Source: a virus
UHGV virus genome: UHGV-0070243
Reading direction: 5' to 3' (one strand)
Length of the DNA: 41,024 bases
Positions 3,046-33,250 of the stretch are shown here, one piece after another. The position numbers and the translations under genes were made by a program. The stretch's first letter is position 1, and every line of letters starts with the position of its first letter. The notes beneath the pieces were generated by a model. It did not search any database. It was not told the origin of the DNA and was given only the letters and a program-made list of their open reading frames with translations.

Positions 3046-3343
3046 GTTTAGACCTCGATACTTTAAAAATTTGAACGACGTTACCGCGCGTTTTAATAAC
3101 CGCAGCCAGCATGACAGCGTTGATAATGACCTCAGATAAATCCACAGCCATTGGCGTACGTAACCAGATTGCATAGGCGACTCGAACAGGAATACTGGCC
3201 GCAGCAACAATCAGGAAATAAGCAAGCCATCCTCCCCACCTTCGATGTTGAGAGCCGTTACGCCGGAATGTGACAACGCGAATTGCTATGCCAGTGCAAA
3301 TAACTGCATTGGTGATAAGCAAAAAAAACTCATGCGTTACCAT
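3035..3343 (-). CDS. holin/antiholin-like small membrane protein (102 aa)
   Basis: three hydrophobic segments; overlaps endolysin start by 11 nt; sits between holin candidate and endolysin. Confidence 0.5.
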
Positions 3344-3734
3344 CGTCTTTTCTCCCCGGAATTAACTCGCGTGGATTATCGGAACGGTGATAGAGCCATA
3401 TACCAATACGCACAGCGACAATTGCTGACACGAATGCGCCTGCAGAGAAAACAATCCCTTTTTCAAAAGAGTCCTGCGTGATGGTAGGGATCAGGCTGGC
3501 TATGCCGATAAGAATTGATGCTGCTGGTTTGTAAAAGAGAAGGCCACAAAGAAAGCTGAGCATCGAAAGGAGCACCCGGCGACGGATGGGGTACTCTACT
3601 GCAGAGGTAACAAAAATTACCGCCCCAGCCAAAGCCCCTAAAGCAACCTCCGGAGGGACACCTGCAATAACCGCAGCAAGAGAACCAAAACTAAGCAACT
3701 GATTTAATTGCTCACTTGTTACTTGAGCAGACAT
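3330..3734 (-). CDS. holin-like membrane protein (134 aa)
   Basis: multiple TM helices, charged C-terminus; first gene of lysis cassette; overlaps next gene by 14 nt. Confidence 0.55.
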   Translation of the reverse strand: MSAQVTSEQLNQLLSFGSLAAVIAGVPPEVALGALAGAVIFVTSAVEYPIRRRVLLSMLSFLCGLLFYKPAASILIGIASLIPTITQDSFEKGIVFSAGAFVSAIVAVRIGIWLYHRSDNPRELIPGRKDDGNA

Positions 3735-7160: not shown

Positions 7161-7264
7161 GTTAAATCTCCAGATAGTCGCAGCACCCGTTGCGCCGCAT
7201 ATCTGGTTATTCTATTACCTGAAAAACCACATATGGATAGAAAGACTGTGAATACGAATAGATA

Positions 7265-7660: not shown

Positions 7661-7926
7661 ATTTACATCGCACTCCTCTTGTGCCATAGTAATCGGGCAC
7701 TGGCAAAATCCAGTGCCGGGATTGGCGTCCCGGGTTACTACAGAGGCACATATGCCGCATAAGCGGTTTTTTTATGTGTAAAGCGCACCTATTCTATGGT
7801 GGGCTGTGTGGGGGCACCGAAAGGTGCGCCGGGTCCTTTGTAGCCGGTTACGCCAACCCTGCACAGTTCACCACCAACCGATTGGCGTCGGTAGTGGTGA
7901 TTAACCTAACTACAAAGGTGATCACT

Positions 7927-11068: not shown

Positions 11069-11140
11069 GTCGTTAATTCCTATACGTAGTTTTACGATAC
11101 TGAAGCCCTGACGGTCTGGCCACCGTTGGGCTTCGCTGTT

Positions 11141-25283: not shown

Positions 25284-25576
25284 TCCTGTTCACTGGCCTC
25301 TTTGGCCATCTTCAAATACTGTTCAGGGCAATGCGCCATAACGCGCTGAAACAGTTCCAGCGCCAGATTGCGTTGCCCCTCATTAAATGCCATTGCCATA
25401 GCGTCCATCGGTGAGATAGCGGAAAACACACGGCCTTTCTCCAGCACCGACCAGACAACGCGACGCCCCTGTTCACTGCTCATGACAAAGCAAATGTCAT
25501 CAATTTCACGCTGTGCCATGTCACGTTGCTTACGGGCGTTTTCTTCTTTCAGTTGATCGTCTTCGTAATCTGTCAT
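25280..25576 (-). CDS. hypothetical head-module protein (98 aa)
   Basis: ORF between portal and scaffold; overlaps both by 4 nt. Confidence 0.45.
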   Translation of the reverse strand: MTDYEDDQLKEENARKQRDMAQREIDDICFVMSSEQGRRVVWSVLEKGRVFSAISPMDAMAMAFNEGQRNLALELFQRVMAHCPEQYLKMAKEASEQE

Positions 25577-27252
25577 TGTGATTGCCCACCCTGACCACTA
25601 ACTGCATTCGCCATAGCTGACAAAACACTCGGATCCGAAGTTTTAGCTTCGCTTAGCGTCTTGGCACCCTGTGCCGCCGCCATCCCCATCGCCATCATTT
25701 GTTGCTGCTGTTGTTGCTGTGCCCGTTGCTGGCGAGCCTGCTCAACCTGTTCCTGCGGAACAATGACGGTTGGAGACACTCCGGACATATCAGCGAATGC
25801 ATCGATCGCCTGATCAACGTTGAGTTTGTCGAGAGCTTCTGGTTTCGCTTGCGCAAGTTGACCAATGAAGTTGACCGTAGACGCCAGACTGGACAGGCCG
25901 ATAGACTTCTGCGCCTGAGCCATGACGGAAATGTATTCGACCTTCAGGGGCATACCTTCCATCGCGTCAGGCGGTGGCGGCAGCATGTTTTTACGCACCA
26001 TCATCGAGAAAGCGCGATCAATGAGAGGATTAAGACATTCGTCGTTCAGACGCTCCAGAACCGGCCCCAACATCAGAAGTTTTTCTTCTTTCATTTCGAT
26101 CACCGCTTCAACAGGCATCGAGCGGGTATTGATGTTCTGCAACATCATGAACAGATCGACAAAGTAGGCGCTGTTAATGATTTGACGGGTGTCCTGAATG
26201 TCTGCCACCAAATCTGCTGTACTGGGGTTAACCAGATAAGCAGGCCTGAAACCATCCTGACCAGTAATCTGATCGATATACGTGATGTCGCCAGGAAGAA
26301 GGGAGGCACGCTGATTCTTGAGGGAAGTCGGAGCAACCATCGGCGGATTGGTGGCTTTATCAATCAACTGCGACTTGCGCTTCTGGAGAAGCTGCAATGC
26401 CTTAACAGGTCCAAGCGCCAGCATACCCGGGCATGATGATCCATAAACATCTTCGCCGTTAACTTCCCAGCGCGGAGCCATAATTGGAAACTCATCGAAT
26501 CCGGACTCACGCAACAACTTGTCGTTATCGCCACCAACCTCGTAATAAACCGATTTGAATGGCTTGTTCTTGCTATCCAGCTTCGATGTATCGCGGTCAA
26601 TGTTCGGGTAAACCGAATGCATCACTTCAATCCACTTCTCGTAGGTTCCGCTTTCCCACATGCTTTTTACGGATTCGCTGACGTTATTTAGCCCGAACTC
26701 CTGAACAAGCTGACGAACAGTCATAGAGAACTTGCGAAAACAGGTGTCCACACTGCCACGAGGTGAGTTAGCCAGGTAGTAACTGCCTATCGGGAATGGC
26801 ATTGTGCGAATGATGTCCTCGTCATCCTCCAGCACTGCCATTGCACCAGTGCTGTATGTGCCGAGGCTTCCGTATAACTGCGGCAGCGACTGATAGAGAT
26901 TCGAATTATTGAACATATCGTTCATGCGGTTCTGCACCGCCTCAAGCCACAACTTAACAGGGCCATAATCCATCATTTCAGGATCTGGCGTAGCCAGGCG
27001 AAACCACGGACGCGCGGGGCTTGTGATGCCTGACATCATGCCGCTGGCGAGAGTGCGCGCCGCCATAGTCCCGGTCGAATCAATAATACGTGTATTGCGT
27101 CGATCGTTACGGTTGACCTCAGAAGTCAGAAAGCGGGAACCACGCGGGTTGATGTAATCACTCAACTCGCGCCAGTGCGGCTCGAACGACTGACGCTCGC
27201 TTTCAAGTTGTGCGAACTGTTTGTTCAATCGCTCTTTAGTTGTTTCCGCCAT
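25573..27252 (-). CDS. portal protein (559 aa), T7-like head-to-tail connector
   Basis: size; Gln/Ala/Met-rich C-terminal tail (QQRAQQQQQQQMMAMGMAAAQ) resembles the T7 gp8 C-terminus (memory); GGAG RBS. Confidence 0.75.
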   Translation of the reverse strand: MAETTKERLNKQFAQLESERQSFEPHWRELSDYINPRGSRFLTSEVNRNDRRNTRIIDSTGTMAARTLASGMMSGITSPARPWFRLATPDPEMMDYGPVKLWLEAVQNRMNDMFNNSNLYQSLPQLYGSLGTYSTGAMAVLEDDEDIIRTMPFPIGSYYLANSPRGSVDTCFRKFSMTVRQLVQEFGLNNVSESVKSMWESGTYEKWIEVMHSVYPNIDRDTSKLDSKNKPFKSVYYEVGGDNDKLLRESGFDEFPIMAPRWEVNGEDVYGSSCPGMLALGPVKALQLLQKRKSQLIDKATNPPMVAPTSLKNQRASLLPGDITYIDQITGQDGFRPAYLVNPSTADLVADIQDTRQIINSAYFVDLFMMLQNINTRSMPVEAVIEMKEEKLLMLGPVLERLNDECLNPLIDRAFSMMVRKNMLPPPPDAMEGMPLKVEYISVMAQAQKSIGLSSLASTVNFIGQLAQAKPEALDKLNVDQAIDAFADMSGVSPTVIVPQEQVEQARQQRAQQQQQQQMMAMGMAAAQGAKTLSEAKTSDPSVLSAMANAVSGQGGQSQ

Positions 27253-27266
27253 TTCAATGACTCCGG

Positions 27267-27473
27267 TTACTGACCAAGCAGCGTTTTACCGCTGGTATTA
27301 GCGGTTGATGTGTCGCCCTGAGAACCGGTAAGCAGCGTAGAACTACGACCAGCAGCAGCGCGACGGCGACGAGTTTCTTCGTCGCGGGCATCAACAACGG
27401 CGGCATCCTGCTCCTGTGGTGCTGCCTGAACTTCTGGTGTTGCAGGCACTGATGGTGAGCTACCCATGCACAT
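27267..27473 (-). CDS. hypothetical small protein (68 aa) upstream of portal
   Basis: GGAG RBS 9 nt upstream; the same RBS context (GGAGTCATTGA) precedes the portal start. Confidence 0.45.
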   Translation of the reverse strand: MCMGSSPSVPATPEVQAAPQEQDAAVVDARDEETRRRRAAAGRSSTLLTGSQGDTSTANTSGKTLLGQ

Positions 27474-27563
27474 ATCAATGACTCCGTACGCAATTAAATT
27501 ATTACCAATTTAACCACATATGATTTATTTATCGTAGATACTTGACATTTAACGCACTAATTA

Positions 27564-27578
27564 TTACCTTTCAGGTAA
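27564..27578. promoter_or_regulatory. operator-like palindrome TTACCtttcaGGTAA next to a TTGACA -35-like hexamer (27542-27547)
   Basis: perfect site; identical 16-mer to the 7264-7279 site. Confidence 0.6.
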
Positions 27579-27900
27579 GCAAAGAGTTCATTCCGGTTAT
27601 TAACCTGACTGGCTTGTCGTTAAATTGAACAGGTGGGGTGAGCTTTTATTTTGAGCAGTACGGTGTATGGCACATGCGCCGATAGCGGTCTGGATACGTT
27701 TAAGGGGCACCCTCCCTTGCTCGGGCAAACGAACCAGGTAGCCGGAATGTGCAAGTCGAGCGGTTTTATTCCGCGCACGGGGATTCACCATCCCGGCGAT
27801 TCGGTGTGACGCCTCGGAAGAGACGAGGGTACAACGATGAGAGCATTTATGGAGCCGCGACAAAGTGTGGCGCCTTAACAGGCTAAGTGCTCTCAGCGTT

Positions 27901-27977
27901 GTGGCATTAGCTCAGTTGGACAGAGCAACCGCCTTCTAAGCGGTTGGTCGCAGGTTCGAATACTGCATGCCACGCCA
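27901..27977 (+). tRNA. tRNA-Arg (anticodon UCU), 77 nt, with a G:A mismatch in the T-stem
   Basis: acceptor GTGGCAT/ATGCCAC, discriminator G, CCA encoded; D-arm GCTC/GAGC; anticodon stem ACCGC/GCGGT with loop CTTCTAA; T-arm GCAGG-TTCGAAT-ACTGC; overall very similar to E. coli argU (memory). Confidence 0.8.
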
Positions 27978-28020
27978 GAATCACGCCTAAGGACCGTGAT
28001 GCCAGAAGTTCCAGGTGCTT

Positions 28021-28062
28021 GGCGGTGATGGTTTCCCTTGAAGGACTATCACCGCCCTTTTT
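28021..28062 (+). terminator. hairpin GGCGGTGAT...ATCACCGCC followed by CTTTTT, downstream of tRNA
   Basis: 9-bp stem with long loop and T-run. Confidence 0.5.
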
Positions 28063-28140
28063 ACAGCAGGACGCCATTGCGATGACTTCATGCTGTAAAC
28101 CAGTACAGCCACGGAAGGCATAACTCATTGCTTCCAGTTC

Positions 28141-28164
28141 GCCCGGTTCGTCCGGGCATTTTTT
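28141..28164 (+). terminator. rho-independent terminator GCCCGG-ttcgt-CCGGGC + T6
   Basis: 6-bp GC stem followed by ATTTTTT. Confidence 0.65.
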
Positions 28165-28180
28165 GCCTGATGACCACAAA

Positions 28181-28195
28181 TTACCTTAAAGGTAT
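28181..28195. promoter_or_regulatory. operator-like site TTACCttaaaGGTAt overlapping a TATAAT hexamer (28193-28198)
   Basis: one mismatch in right arm; directly upstream of the moron start codon. Confidence 0.5.
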
Positions 28196-28199
28196 AATC

Positions 28200-29048
28200 A
28201 TGAAAAACTTTAAGGTAATTAGTATGTTCGAATCGTTCAAAGAGCTGTTTTCATCTACTGCCAATACTGCCGTGCATCGAGCTAAAAACCCTGTGCTTGG
28301 TGCTTTTGTTATGTCCTGGTGCGCCTTCAACTGGAAATCACTTCTTTATCTATTTTTTAGCAAATCAAATATAATAGATAAAATTTCATACATCTCAGAT
28401 AACAGCACATGGAAAACTGTTATGTTTTATCCATGCTTATCTGTAATTACTATCTGCTGCCTATTACCATGGGTAAACAATATCATTAACGTATGGCAAG
28501 CAAAGCCTCTTGATAATAATGACTCAATCGAAAACCACCGGAAGGCAAGAAAAATACAACGTGAAACACGGCTACAGAGATTGCTGGCTAAAAAAGACAT
28601 TACTTACGAAAAAGTAAAAACAGGCGCTGAAAAAAACATTCAAGACATGAAAGAGGAAATAATTCTTTCAAAAGACAGAATGGGACAACTCACATCTGAA
28701 TTGAAAGAGAGGGAGACAGAACTGCGCGCAGCACAAGCTCGTATTTTAGAATTATCTAAGGTTATTGATGAAACAACATCTAAACTAGAAAATCTAGAAA
28801 AAACTCACAAAAATTTAAAAAACGAATATGAGTCCTATAAGAAAAACATTCCTTTGGCAACAAATAATACAATTGCTAATGGGCTTGTAGGTCTAAAATC
28901 ATTACAAGACTTTAATGAGTCCGTAAAGAAACTTGGCGTTACTGGAATTAACAATCCAGAAATCAGTACATTATTGAATAATCCTCTAGTAAATATAAAT
29001 GGTGATTTAAATTCCACCTATCAAAGAAAATCAAAAACACAAAAGTAA
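28200..29048 (+). CDS. hypothetical membrane-anchored coiled-coil protein (282 aa); moron on the strand opposite the structural genes
   Basis: two N-terminal hydrophobic helices then long heptad-like charged region (ELKERETELRAAQARILELSKVIDETTSKLENLEKTHKNLKNEYESYKK); AT-rich; alternative start ATG 28224 with RBS AAGGTAA. Confidence 0.6.
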   Translation: MKNFKVISMFESFKELFSSTANTAVHRAKNPVLGAFVMSWCAFNWKSLLYLFFSKSNIIDKISYISDNSTWKTVMFYPCLSVITICCLLPWVNNIINVWQAKPLDNNDSIENHRKARKIQRETRLQRLLAKKDITYEKVKTGAEKNIQDMKEEIILSKDRMGQLTSELKERETELRAAQARILELSKVIDETTSKLENLEKTHKNLKNEYESYKKNIPLATNNTIANGLVGLKSLQDFNESVKKLGVTGINNPEISTLLNNPLVNINGDLNSTYQRKSKTQK

Positions 29049-29051
29049 AAA

Positions 29052-30521
29052 TCATTCAAATGGGTCATAGTCTGTTATAGCCCTGCCCTGCTGCTGCCGT
29101 GGGTCATTAGTTTTCTTGGCTACCGGGAACGCAAACGTCAGCAGTAGCGCATCGCCTTTACCAGGAGAACGCCCAAGCCGCTCCTTGATATCTTCCTTCG
29201 GTTCGATAACGATTTTACCGTCCACTCGAACTTTGTACTCTGCCGCCGACAGGTCGTCCGCTGTTTCCTGGTCATCAAGCATGCCGCCCAGCCTCAGCCA
29301 TGTCTTGCATGAGTTGAACATCTCCCCACGCTTGTTGAGCATCTGCGGGTCAGTAGACGCACCACCAAACGGAACAAGTTGCCATGTACGACCCCAGCCG
29401 TCACCGATTGACTTCAGACCAGTTCCGTAACCGAAGTCGATGAACACTGCGTCAGCCTGGTACTGGTCTTCAAAGTCAGCGATACGCTTCGCCATTATCA
29501 GATCGTCAGTGGTCTTGTTGCCAGTCCACAGCACCTTACTGTGTAGCCCCTGCCGCAGGTATATCACAGCGTCATCAACGCCGGAGTATGCCGGGTCAAC
29601 GCCGATTATCACCGGAGCATGTGCAACCTGCGCAGCGGTTACCACCCGTTTCATTGCCTCGTCAGTAAGACCGGTAGGGATAAACTGCAATTCAGATGCA
29701 TCAGGGAATATGCCACGCACACGGATTTTAACGAAGTCGCTGTCTTCCCCGTAGTCATCAACCCATTTCTGCAACTGCTGTTTGTTGGTACCTTCCACCG
29801 TCCGACTGTCAATCTGCGCAGTTTTCCAGCGGTGTTTATACTTGCGGAAACATTCACGGAAACGTCCGGTATTACGCGTCGGGTTTCCGAACGCCACCCA
29901 GATAATCTCAGTGTCTTCGTCCGTAAGCGCACCCTCAGCAACTTCCCACACCAGATCCGCAATGTTCGACGCTTCATCGAATACCACGATGATGCGTTTG
30001 CGCTCGTTGTGTAGTCCGGCGAATGCCTCAGTGTTGTGCTCAGACCAGGGGATTGCGTCAGCTCGCCACCGCTTGTCGTGCCCAGGATCATTGCTGTACA
30101 TCGCAGTAGCGGTACAGGTAAACCAGTCTTTCGTGATAGCAAGGTTCGACCACTTGATAATTTCCGGCCAGGTCTTCGTTCGTAGCTGGTTGTCGGTGTT
30201 GGCGGTCACCACGACCTTACAATCCTCGCAAGTGGACATGCCCCAGTTGATCAGCATTGAGATGAATGCGGATTTACCAATACCGTGACCAGAAGCGCGT
30301 GCCAGCATAAGCGGCTGATAGCGCGTCTCTGGATTCTGCAGGTGATCACGTATCTCTCGGAACGCATCGGCCTGCCACTGACGTGGACCGGTGGCATGTG
30401 CCAGTTCAGTACCCTCTTCCCCCCACGGGAACGCATAGAGGGCATAGCCAAGCGGATCGTGAGTGAACCCTGCAATATCCTCGATCAACTGCTCTTCAGG
30501 AGATAACGCTGTATCTGTCAC
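29052..30521 (-). CDS. terminase large subunit (489 aa)
   Basis: Walker A SGHGIGKS and Walker B-like IIVVFDEAS; C-terminal nuclease-like region; overlaps terS by 4 nt. Confidence 0.85.
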   Translation of the reverse strand: MTDTALSPEEQLIEDIAGFTHDPLGYALYAFPWGEEGTELAHATGPRQWQADAFREIRDHLQNPETRYQPLMLARASGHGIGKSAFISMLINWGMSTCEDCKVVVTANTDNQLRTKTWPEIIKWSNLAITKDWFTCTATAMYSNDPGHDKRWRADAIPWSEHNTEAFAGLHNERKRIIVVFDEASNIADLVWEVAEGALTDEDTEIIWVAFGNPTRNTGRFRECFRKYKHRWKTAQIDSRTVEGTNKQQLQKWVDDYGEDSDFVKIRVRGIFPDASELQFIPTGLTDEAMKRVVTAAQVAHAPVIIGVDPAYSGVDDAVIYLRQGLHSKVLWTGNKTTDDLIMAKRIADFEDQYQADAVFIDFGYGTGLKSIGDGWGRTWQLVPFGGASTDPQMLNKRGEMFNSCKTWLRLGGMLDDQETADDLSAAEYKVRVDGKIVIEPKEDIKERLGRSPGKGDALLLTFAFPVAKKTNDPRQQQGRAITDYDPFE

Positions 30522-32400: not shown

Positions 32401-32589
32401 TCACTCTCCTTTAGTGCGCAAGTGGTTTTTCCAGCGGTTTTGCGCCGCGCTGGGCTTTTTGCAAAAACCACAATCCATCATCCCGTAATGTTTCATTAAC
32501 CCCATCCGTCGGTTGCTGAGTCTCACCCACTGCCAGACGCCAGGAGCGTTTCTACGAACTAACAGAATCTTTGCTTTACGGTTTTTCAT
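32401..32589 (-). CDS. small basic protein (62 aa)
   Basis: RBS AGGAGAG; stop 1 nt from next start. Confidence 0.45.
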   Translation of the reverse strand: MKNRKAKILLVRRNAPGVWQWVRLSNRRMGLMKHYGMMDCGFCKKPSAAQNRWKNHLRTKGE

Positions 32590-32761
32590 CGCTTTGCTCT
32601 CCTGCGTCTCTTTGCTGCTCGTCGTGCCGCTGCAATACCGGTATGGCGGCGCTTTGGTGCTGGGGTGATGTTGTCAGCCATCAGGACCTGTGGCTTTGCA
32701 ATTAGCGCAGAAGCCCAAAAACGAGTCGGGTACGGTAACAAGCCAATACATGCCACACGCA

Positions 32762-33250
32762 CTACTCACCTCCGTTGATGCGAATGCCTGTTGCAATGCT
32801 GTTTATGATGCTGTCAGTGCATGGGGTAGAAAGCTGGGCATCTCCAGCAATTTTCATGACATCAACATCTGCATATCGAATACCGAGGTGTATCAGACCG
32901 GCTATACCTGACTTAAGCCGAGCATTTTCCATAAACAGATCCTTTGCCCGCTGTTTTTCTGCCTCAAGCTCAACGCGCAACTTCCCTACCGTTAGCGCAA
33001 TATCCTCGTTCTCCTGGTCGCGGGATTTGATGTATTGCTGGTTCCTTTCCCGTTCATCCAGTAGTGCCAGCACGGTTTCTGGTCCGGCCAGAAATTTGAA
33101 GGCGTTGAGCGCATCAATATCCACACCGTAATCTTTAAGTTCCTGTTCACTTAACAAATCATCATCAGCTGGCAACATTAACAGGCGTTCCATTGCTGGA
33201 ATTGCACGTTCCGCCGCCTCACGCAGTGCCTGGTAATTAATTTCGCTCAC
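32762..33250 (-). CDS. Ead/Ea22-like protein (162 aa)
   Basis: N-terminus MSEINYQALREAAERA recalled as typical of Ead/Ea22-family prophage proteins; coiled-coil centre. Confidence 0.45.
   Translation of the reverse strand: MSEINYQALREAAERAIPAMERLLMLPADDDLLSEQELKDYGVDIDALNAFKFLAGPETVLALLDERERNQQYIKSRDQENEDIALTVGKLRVELEAEKQRAKDLFMENARLKSGIAGLIHLGIRYADVDVMKIAGDAQLSTPCTDSIINSIATGIRINGGE

Follow-up and report, generated by a model that had tools for sequence, protein, structure and literature searches.

The put RNA of phage HK022 renders RNA polymerase insensitive to terminators by way of the zinc-binding domain of the beta' subunit. In Bacillales, a large, pseudoknotted and cis-acting RNA, EAR (eps-associated RNA), is thought to give processive antitermination. 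Many lambdoid phages have no N gene and, to our knowledge, only those of the HK022 type have a known substitute for it, namely put. Transfer RNA genes also occur within regulated phage transcripts: Stx phage 933W carries ileZ-argN-argO in its Q-antiterminated PR' leader. We know of no link between the tRNAs of 933W, or those of the P1 ban operon, and a conserved structured RNA. Here we describe an RNA element that occupies the put slot of many N-less phages, so that the passage of early terminators becomes directly testable. The copy under study lies on the + strand of UHGV virus genome UHGV-0070243 (41,024 nt; hereafter the window, to which positions refer unless another locus, designated by L and a number, is named), between an operator-bearing early promoter and a gene for tRNA-Arg(UCU). 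An earlier reading of the letters alone (the original prediction) had drawn attention to this tRNA and to its leader.

Comparison of homologous sequences identifies bases 27659 to 27900 as a member of a conserved, structured and pseudoknotted RNA family of approximately 240 nt, with helices designated P1 to P7 (Table 1). An alignment of 84 distinct core sequences (A1) supports five helices in this part. Of the cells assigned to helices, 97.3% hold standard base pairs, a figure that drops to 27-49% once the partner strand is slid. Eleven of the 26 pairs vary on both sides, giving 226 compensatory cells, a score reached by none of 500 shuffles. In the pseudoknot, a pair that is CG in 65 sequences of the alignment is AU in the other 19. 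Helix P7, whose pairs were counted by script, has 93% of its cells paired in 37 distinct versions (45-66% when slid), with compensatory types at several positions. The abundance of G-U pairs identifies the + strand as the RNA strand. Thus, pairs are kept by compensatory change across homologues, as is the mark of a structured noncoding RNA, and the leader of the window also folds better than its shuffled versions (z = -3.2); in this respect the original prediction was right. Several single-stranded stretches do not vary at all, namely UGGCACAUG, AGCGGUC, a 19-mer and GGCG, and their invariance points to tertiary structure or to a binding partner.

The original prediction had also stated that the leader holds no open reading frame of 60 aa or more. 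This is correct for the + strand; the - strand contains a mechanical 87-aa frame opening with TTG (27600-27863). This frame is unconserved. Between relatives, the element varies in length by numbers of nucleotides that are not multiples of three and its substitutions track the pairing of helices, two features that exclude protein coding. There is almost no chance that a small protein is made from this frame or from a 13-codon ATG frame at 27837. Several GenBank records do annotate hypothetical proteins over the element, but the annotated frames differ in strand, frame and length from one relative to the next, and the ATG at 27837 lies inside helix P7, where changes are compensatory. Instances include mEp460_037, mEp390_036 and Tyrion gp54; calls of this sort lie at positions 2943-3311 of L002, 1511-1753 of L009 and 1601-1762 of L006. 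Given the disagreement in strand and frame, these calls are probably spurious, and a model of the RNA would allow them to be corrected.

The family is widespread and unannotated as RNA. The segment 27660-27900 is approximately 82% identical to unannotated DNA of the lambdoid phages mEp460, cdtI, 2H10 and Ayreon and of Stx2c phages, and the segment 27660-27822 approximately 80% identical to DNA of P1, P7 and other P1-like phages. A blastn search placed the element in 1840 of 5426 complete Escherichia coli genomes, about a third (2120 matching records). Among 40 matches listed, 39 had no feature beneath them and one a hypothetical protein; none was labelled as RNA, nor was any RNA annotated at the element in the phage records examined. 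Rfam 15 returned no match over 27579-27900 even at E <= 10, so that the leader is not explained by a known family, the outcome that the original prediction had named as a refutation, and nothing beyond chance-level matches was found in the homologous region of L010. We found the element in no paper of the full-text literature, searched by sequence and by description, most subscription journals lying outside that search; an earlier description could exist there. AgvB and AsxR, two anti-sRNAs considered on account of CACAAC motifs, were set aside: both are Rfam families of the PR' region, 51-60 nt long.

Exact copies of the 19-mer (GGTAGCCGGAATGTGCAAG) are present in at least 120 IMG/VR contigs and at 24 places in species-representative genomes, the latter all of Enterobacterales save two metagenome bins labelled Bacillota. 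These two (L144 and L156, the labels being Oscillospiraceae and Bacillota) are probably mis-binned. The 19-mer is also present in the "Stenotrophomonas" phages BUCT708 and BUCT709 (L007/L161), whose annotation notes cite locus tags of enterobacterial appearance. Considering these tags and the dubious bin labels, a host range beyond Enterobacterales is uncertain. Neither the 19-mer nor the modules of the element have further copies elsewhere in the window. In epsilon15, only P1 and the start of P2/P3 are retained (L004, 2540-2620). The deletion removed the core, the segment that follows P7 and half of the first terminator (T1), joining the loop of P3 to that of T1 at a UUCCCUUGAUGCU repeat. It apparently arose between two copies of this repeat: in SPN1S, the loops of T1 and P3 have 13 nt in common, and the epsilon15 joint falls there.

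In lambdoid, Uetakevirus and P1-like phages alike, sequence comparison further places the element behind an early promoter under repressor control, and directly behind it in the first two groups. The nearest upstream reading frame is a codirectional gene for a cI-like S24 repressor in 60 of 121 loci. Between the repressor gene of mEp460 and the element stand a terminator and, after it, a promoter whose TTGC-N7-GCAA operators are of the kind present at OR, which identifies it as PL. Two loci with OL/PL of the HK022 type (L047 and L039) have the element starting exactly at the position of HK022 putL, and a put-like motif was found in no element-bearing locus. In P1, the element belongs to the C1-controlled ban operon, directly after the gene for tRNA-Ile2 (trnI) and before ban. 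The P1 copy is truncated after P6; other P1-like phages have the full form. Uetakeviruses carry it behind an operator-bearing promoter.

The promoter of the window is of this last kind. It was read from the sequence and was not called by a consensus promoter scan, as its -10 hexamer fits the consensus at only three of six positions; the layout TTGACA-N17-TACCYT recurs in epsilon15, SPN1S, Tyrion, BUCT554 and a Klebsiella phage. The palindrome ATTACC-N5-GGTAA that overlaps it has 24 strand matches in the window, at about 13 distinct places, where 0.4 would be expected by chance, and the homologous site of epsilon15 carries the GenBank annotation "repressor binding site". These counts bear out the earlier remark that a TTGACA hexamer stands here beside an operator-like site. 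As operator and promoter overlap, the promoter is most likely closed as long as the phage is a lysogen, and expression would be expected once induction or infection frees it; the original prediction had proposed to look for the RNA in a lysogen. The other matches to the palindrome are spread over 7264-37455 (e.g., at 7264, 8679, 31113, 34279 and 37377). In this scatter they resemble the C1 operators of P1, an indication that one repressor governs many separate promoters. Between promoter and core, the segment 27579-27658, compared by eye with BUCT554, the Klebsiella phage, epsilon15 and Tyrion, looks like the remnant of an ACAAC...GGUGUG hairpin that is intact in relatives.

Two terminators follow the tRNA gene, as the original prediction had it. 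Among relatives, a terminator-like site lies 100-800 nt downstream of the element in 93 of 128 unique loci, as compared with 50 of 117 control windows. In epsilon15, SPN1S, PAT1 and BUCT554, the U tract of the second terminator (T2) leads straight to the ribosome-binding site of the gene that follows, and no promoter intervenes; hence, unless polymerase reads through, hardly any expression of this gene is to be expected. The first downstream genes matched no Pfam family and, by eye, have no arginine-rich N-terminus of the lambda N type.

The position in the slot at PL, the presence of the element in place of putL behind operators of the same type, the terminators that run up to the following gene and a first gene unlike N lead us to favour tentatively, at somewhat less than an even chance, the view that the element is an early-leader RNA acting in cis in the manner of put and carrying polymerase over terminators, with the tRNA as a passenger. 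From the observed family, its fold, its position and its cargo slot (see below), we infer a start site, an RNase P cleavage and functions as follows. Induction or infection would free the operator and host polymerase would start near 27578. The nascent core would fold and act on the transcribing polymerase in cis, like the RNA of HK022 put, and transcription would then run past both terminators and reach the accessory gene or genes, which vary between phages. A fixed slot after P7 would hold a passenger, here the tRNA and in other phages a tRNA-like domain. By analogy with the maturation of tRNAs, a cut by RNase P at 27900/27901 would free the tRNA and leave a core RNA whose 3' end is closed off by P7. 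A 2025 paper describes the mEp460-like phage LLS as devoid of N and remarks that it "may" rely on a put-like RNA (PMC12315714).

The likeness to put of HK022 and to the put-like RNA of HK639 lies in the arrangement: in lambdoid phages that lack N, each is a noncoding RNA and the first to be transcribed from PL, a promoter under repressor control, and the element too is found just downstream of PL and ahead of terminators. The differences are considerable, and together with some features of individual loci they weigh against antitermination. The element resembles put of HK022 or HK639 neither in sequence nor in structure; put measures approximately 70 nt and has two stem-loops, whereas the element has seven helices and a pseudoknot in approximately 240 nt. 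HK022 has both putL and putR, but each phage record contains a single copy of the element, without a counterpart after PR. The element also occurs outside lambdoid phages, and it carries a tRNA or a cargo bounded by GUGG and CCAC. P1-like copies lack a downstream terminator-like site. Two Uetakevirus-like prophages offer no gene to read into: in L104 (3580-4300) and L068 (4850-5400) the convergent terminase gene comes directly after the RNA locus, and the + strand has no protein gene there. In L068 a 9-codon frame is all that follows T2 and is read as the remnant of a deleted gene; L104 may have undergone a recent deletion. Finally, epsilon15 is a viable phage and has lost most of the element, which is therefore dispensable for viability.

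Antitermination through boxA and NusB-E was considered and rejected. A canonical boxA is present in one of 129 unique loci (L089), a further point against a role in antitermination, and neither this count nor the first downstream genes, which are not N-like, agree with a lambda nut site. In L089, at approximately 3330-3420, P7 is replaced by a hairpin and a perfect rrn-type boxA, UGCUCUUUAACAA. With the nutL/N leader of lambda the element does share its map position and the presence of long hairpins as potential RNase III sites. P6, CCUCG-GAAGAGA-CGAGG, also recalls boxB of nutL, which reads GCCCU-GAAGA-AGGGC, but has a loop of 7 nt instead of 5. Hairpins of the P6 type are almost confined to the early leader in the complete genome of BUCT708. 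In addition, stem-GAAAGA-stem hairpins, often preceded by UGAC, cluster in early leaders (L161, i.e., BUCT708, 32500-33100 on the - strand; L077; L009 at 1788). Four of them are present in the leader of BUCT708, and almost none elsewhere in its 44-kb genome. These could serve as repeated protein-binding sites. As for EAR, it belongs to another phylum and another context, and the element has no Rfam match.

The segment that follows P7 is exchangeable. Conservation of the sequence ends at the junction of CGUU and GUGG, beyond which the loci diverge. Among 112 unique versions, 24 continue into tRNA-Arg(TCT) and 75 have no tRNA; the remaining 13, all P1-like, have tRNA-Ile2 upstream. Phage mEp460 (L002) and Stx2c phages (L005) share the same core and downstream region and differ in the cargo, which shows that the slot can be refilled; L104 contains two units of P7 plus cargo in tandem. 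It follows from the many copies devoid of a tRNA that the leader is not simply the 5' precursor of an unusual tRNA whose mismatch would be the point of interest, a reading that we consider very unlikely. The tRNA is co-transcribed with the leader by virtue of its position, and position +1 of the tRNA directly follows the last base of P7; still, the core is conserved whatever cargo follows. Thus, of the two roles that the original prediction had offered for the leader, processed precursor or separate noncoding RNA, processing is plausible, and the part that does not stand is that of a mere tRNA precursor, the tRNA-less versions including copies at lambdoid PL and in P1-like phages.

Fillers other than tRNAs are bounded by GUGG...CCAC(AAC). 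The commonest, class A, begins with GUGGUGA-AU-GCGC[AGGCUGAU]GCGC and, after a variable stretch of approximately 25-130 nt, ends with GCCGG[AGAUCAGCA]CCGGC-CACCAC. It would thus comprise an acceptor-like stem of 6-7 bp, GUGGUG(A)/(U)CACCAC, a D-like hairpin of 4 bp and a T-like hairpin of 5 bp next to the 3' strand of the stem. The loops of the two hairpins are complementary, GCUGAU/AUCAGC, with one compensatory variant (GCUAAU/AUUAGC) and one wobble among 16 distinct frameworks. Class A cargo looks like a tRNA mimic, a resemblance that, with only 16 distinct frameworks, is suggestive; it gave no Rfam match above chance to tRNA or to TLS. In L098, a long tRNA-like match occupies the cargo slot. 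Modules made of a tRNA or tRNA-like domain beside a functional RNA, with an end defined by RNase P, may have analogues in the C4 RNA of P1 and P7, in the CI RNA of P4 and in MALAT1-mascRNA. None of these is related to the element by sequence or in Rfam, and in the element an RNase P cut is only predicted. The existence of a fixed slot, open to a real tRNA as well as to a tRNA-like domain, suggests a general means by which phages could produce and mature small RNAs at the onset of infection.

Such features could also mean that core, cargo or both are stand-alone RNAs acting in trans early in the lytic cycle, for instance as decoys or sponges against defence or host factors, with the tRNA or tRNA-like module providing an RNase P-dependent 3' end as in mascRNA/MALAT1. 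We regard this as the main alternative to antitermination and as somewhat less likely. It would account for the exchange of cargo domains with conserved ends and highly variable middles, for the complementary loops of class A and their compensatory variant, and for the persistence of the locus without a downstream gene in L104 and L068; these two cases are weakened, however, by the 9-codon remnant in the latter and the possible recent deletion in the former. The invariance of the 19-mer over hosts of several genera suggests a conserved host target, yet we can name none. Tad2-like (anti-Thoeris) domains appear among the neighbouring protein cargo of two phage types, a P1-like and a Uetakevirus-like locus (L043 and L083), where the gene next to the element is a Tad2-like anti-defence gene. 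Against an action in trans, the element always lies promoter-proximal and, save in two cases, upstream of codirectional genes. With a similarly limited likelihood, the element could represent a new class of large, pseudoknotted and modular early "RNA operon", in which a conserved 5' domain is joined to exchangeable cargo, a tRNA or a mimic of one. It would serve either as a third type of early antitermination device in N-less lambdoid phages, made of RNA only and standing beside N-nut and put, or as an RNA-based counter-defence or host-takeover factor. If so, annotation would have missed a class of RNA that roughly one in three complete E. coli genomes contains.

The design of P7, a helix of approximately 15 bp with a weak spot at its centre, raises another possibility, improbable in our view. 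Together with the ACAAC...GUUGUG hairpins, it could provide RNase III sites and the tRNA or tRNA-like domain an RNase P site, the early transcript being cut into stable pieces as are the early mRNAs of T7 or the lambda N leader, and the core serving no further function. The GenBank record of epsilon15 labels the 5' part of the element as an RNase III processing site, but the label is a prediction; modules of like design recur up- and downstream in relatives. A cassette for processing and stability would leave the invariant 19-mer, the pseudoknot and the other conserved junction bases unexplained. Conserved junctions, a pseudoknot and variable peripheral hairpins between a promoter and terminators are also what one would expect from a riboswitch or attenuator that senses a ligand or a tRNA and sets read-through at T1 and T2 according to the state of the host; furthermore, GUUGUGG could pair with either the upstream ACAAC or the downstream CCACAAC. 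We give this explanation little credit. The terminators lie 200 nt away or more, past an exchangeable cargo domain, and are absent from P1-like copies; no terminator stem was found to have an alternative partner and no Rfam riboswitch matches.

The tRNA itself is genuine and ordinary, and serves the rare AGA codon. It is the only tRNA that ARAGORN reports for the window, as tRNA-Arg(TCT), and the Rfam tRNA model scores it at 62.9 bits, the gathering score being 29. The anticodon loop is CUUCUAA, the D loop contains GGA, so that A20 is present, and base 73 is G. ArgRS recognizes A20 and C35 as identity bases; both are found along with the UCU anticodon. As compared with K-12 argU, the anticodon loop is identical, the D arm differs by one loop base and the T arm by the mismatch discussed below, and the acceptor stem, the anticodon stem and the variable loop are all different. 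The kinship to argU and the distinct acceptor stem were therefore correctly described in the original prediction. It had also proposed a check for AGA/AGG enrichment in late genes; 38 reading frames of the window contain 7.9 AGA and 4.6 AGG per 1000 codons. Typical values in E. coli are roughly 2-3 and 1-2 per 1000, respectively, so that use in the phage is several-fold higher, in keeping with the part that phage tRNAs usually play in the reading of rare codons. In this the gene resembles ileZ-argN-argO of 933W and trnI of P1, rare-codon (AGA, AUA) passenger tRNAs in noncoding stretches of regulated transcripts. The gene is not new, being already annotated in records of relatives.

The mismatch fared differently. 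The near-universal G53-C61 pair that closes the T loop is indeed broken in the window, with a G53:A61 non-pair flagged on the NC line of cmscan (A61 is base 27962), but it is not a trait of this tRNA. All 27 other copies among the fetched loci have C61, and a 61-nt query centred on A61 retrieved 505 E. coli records, none of them identical and 504 with one difference. The change costs about 10 bits in the Rfam score (73.3 for the C61 version, 72.1 for argU). Since A61 was found in the window sequence alone, it reflects a recent point mutation or a sequencing error. These comparisons mark it as a one-off C-to-A change, of no importance and not a designed feature.

Table 1. Features of the RNA locus and of its surroundings in the window
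Feature	Position	Strand	Remarks
Early promoter	27542..27570	+	-35 TTGACA 27542-27547, 17-nt spacer, weak -10 TACCTT 27565-27570; read from sequence
Operator-like palindrome	27563-27578	.	ATTACC-N5-GGTAA, ATTACCTTTCAGGTAA; overlaps -10 and start site
Degenerate 5' hairpin module	27579..27658	+	Contains GUCGUUAAAU; folds as hairpin, -21.9 kcal/mol
Conserved RNA core	27659..27830	+	Alignment A1
P1	27661-27669 with 27673-27681	+	9 bp, GCA loop
P2	27690-27693 with 27734-27737	+	Encloses variable hairpin
Invariant 19-mer	27737-27755	+	GGUAGCCGGAAUGUGCAAG
P4	27758-27776	+	Variable hairpin
P5	27780-27783 with 27791-27794	+	
Pseudoknot	27786-27789 with 27803-27806	+	P5 loop CACC pairs with GGUG
P6	27812-27828	+	CCUCG-GAAGAGA-CGAGG
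P7	27833-27847 with 27886-27900	+	Long hairpin, variable top; segment 27831..27900
tRNA-Arg(UCU)	27901-27977	+	CCA encoded; ARAGORN, Rfam tRNA RF00005
Conserved hairpin	27980..28000	+	AUCACG-CCUAAGGAC-CGUGAU; directly after cargo slot, after tRNA and non-tRNA cargo in relatives
Terminator T1	28021..28062	+	Hairpin 28021-28056; 14-bp stem and U tract, loop with UUCCCUUGA
Inter-terminator segment	28063..28164	+	Hairpins 28063-28096 and 28113-28135
Terminator T2	28141-28164	+	Hairpin 28141-28157
Second operator-like palindrome	28180-28195	.	Directly before next ORF; promoter-like site 28170-28198 overlaps
Variable accessory gene	28200..29048	+	282 aa, phrog_4780 (function unknown)
Large terminase gene	29052-30521	-	Opposite flank of insert
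Small gene	27267-27473	-	68 aa; same flank as portal
Portal gene	25573-27252	-	One flank of insert
C4 RNA	7792-7878		

The window belongs to a temperate phage of the phiV10/epsilon15 type (Uetakevirus), as judged from its sequence; over the region 27400-28200 it is 99% identical to phiV10, TL-2011b and O157 typing phages 9 and 10, all Uetakeviruses. The locus forms a + strand insert that splits two genes of the - strand late operon, and the G+C content of the leader is 53%, against 47.5% for the window as a whole. Downstream of the RNA, the segment from the end of T1 to that of T2 has a layout, two hairpins and a terminator, that resembles the 3' end of an Hfq-type small RNA; its only Rfam match, RyhB-like, is below threshold (19.4 bits vs. 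55). The gene that follows has its own operator and promoter-like site, and its product shows no significant Pfam family. In relatives, this slot is filled by genes of the N4 gp49/Sf6 gp66 family or of several unknown families, in addition to those with Tad2-like domains.

Other RNA genes were recognized by Rfam elsewhere in the window. An isrK RNA (74.7 bits) stands directly 5' of a C4 antisense RNA (79.5 bits) at 7697-7878, and a sar RNA match is located at 11070-11137 (45.2 bits, the threshold being 43). These are RNA-based immunity modules of the kind found in immI of P1/P7 and immI of P22, here inside a Uetakevirus. The same isrK-C4 pair is present in mEp460 and in one Stx2c phage, approximately 2 kb from their copy of the element.

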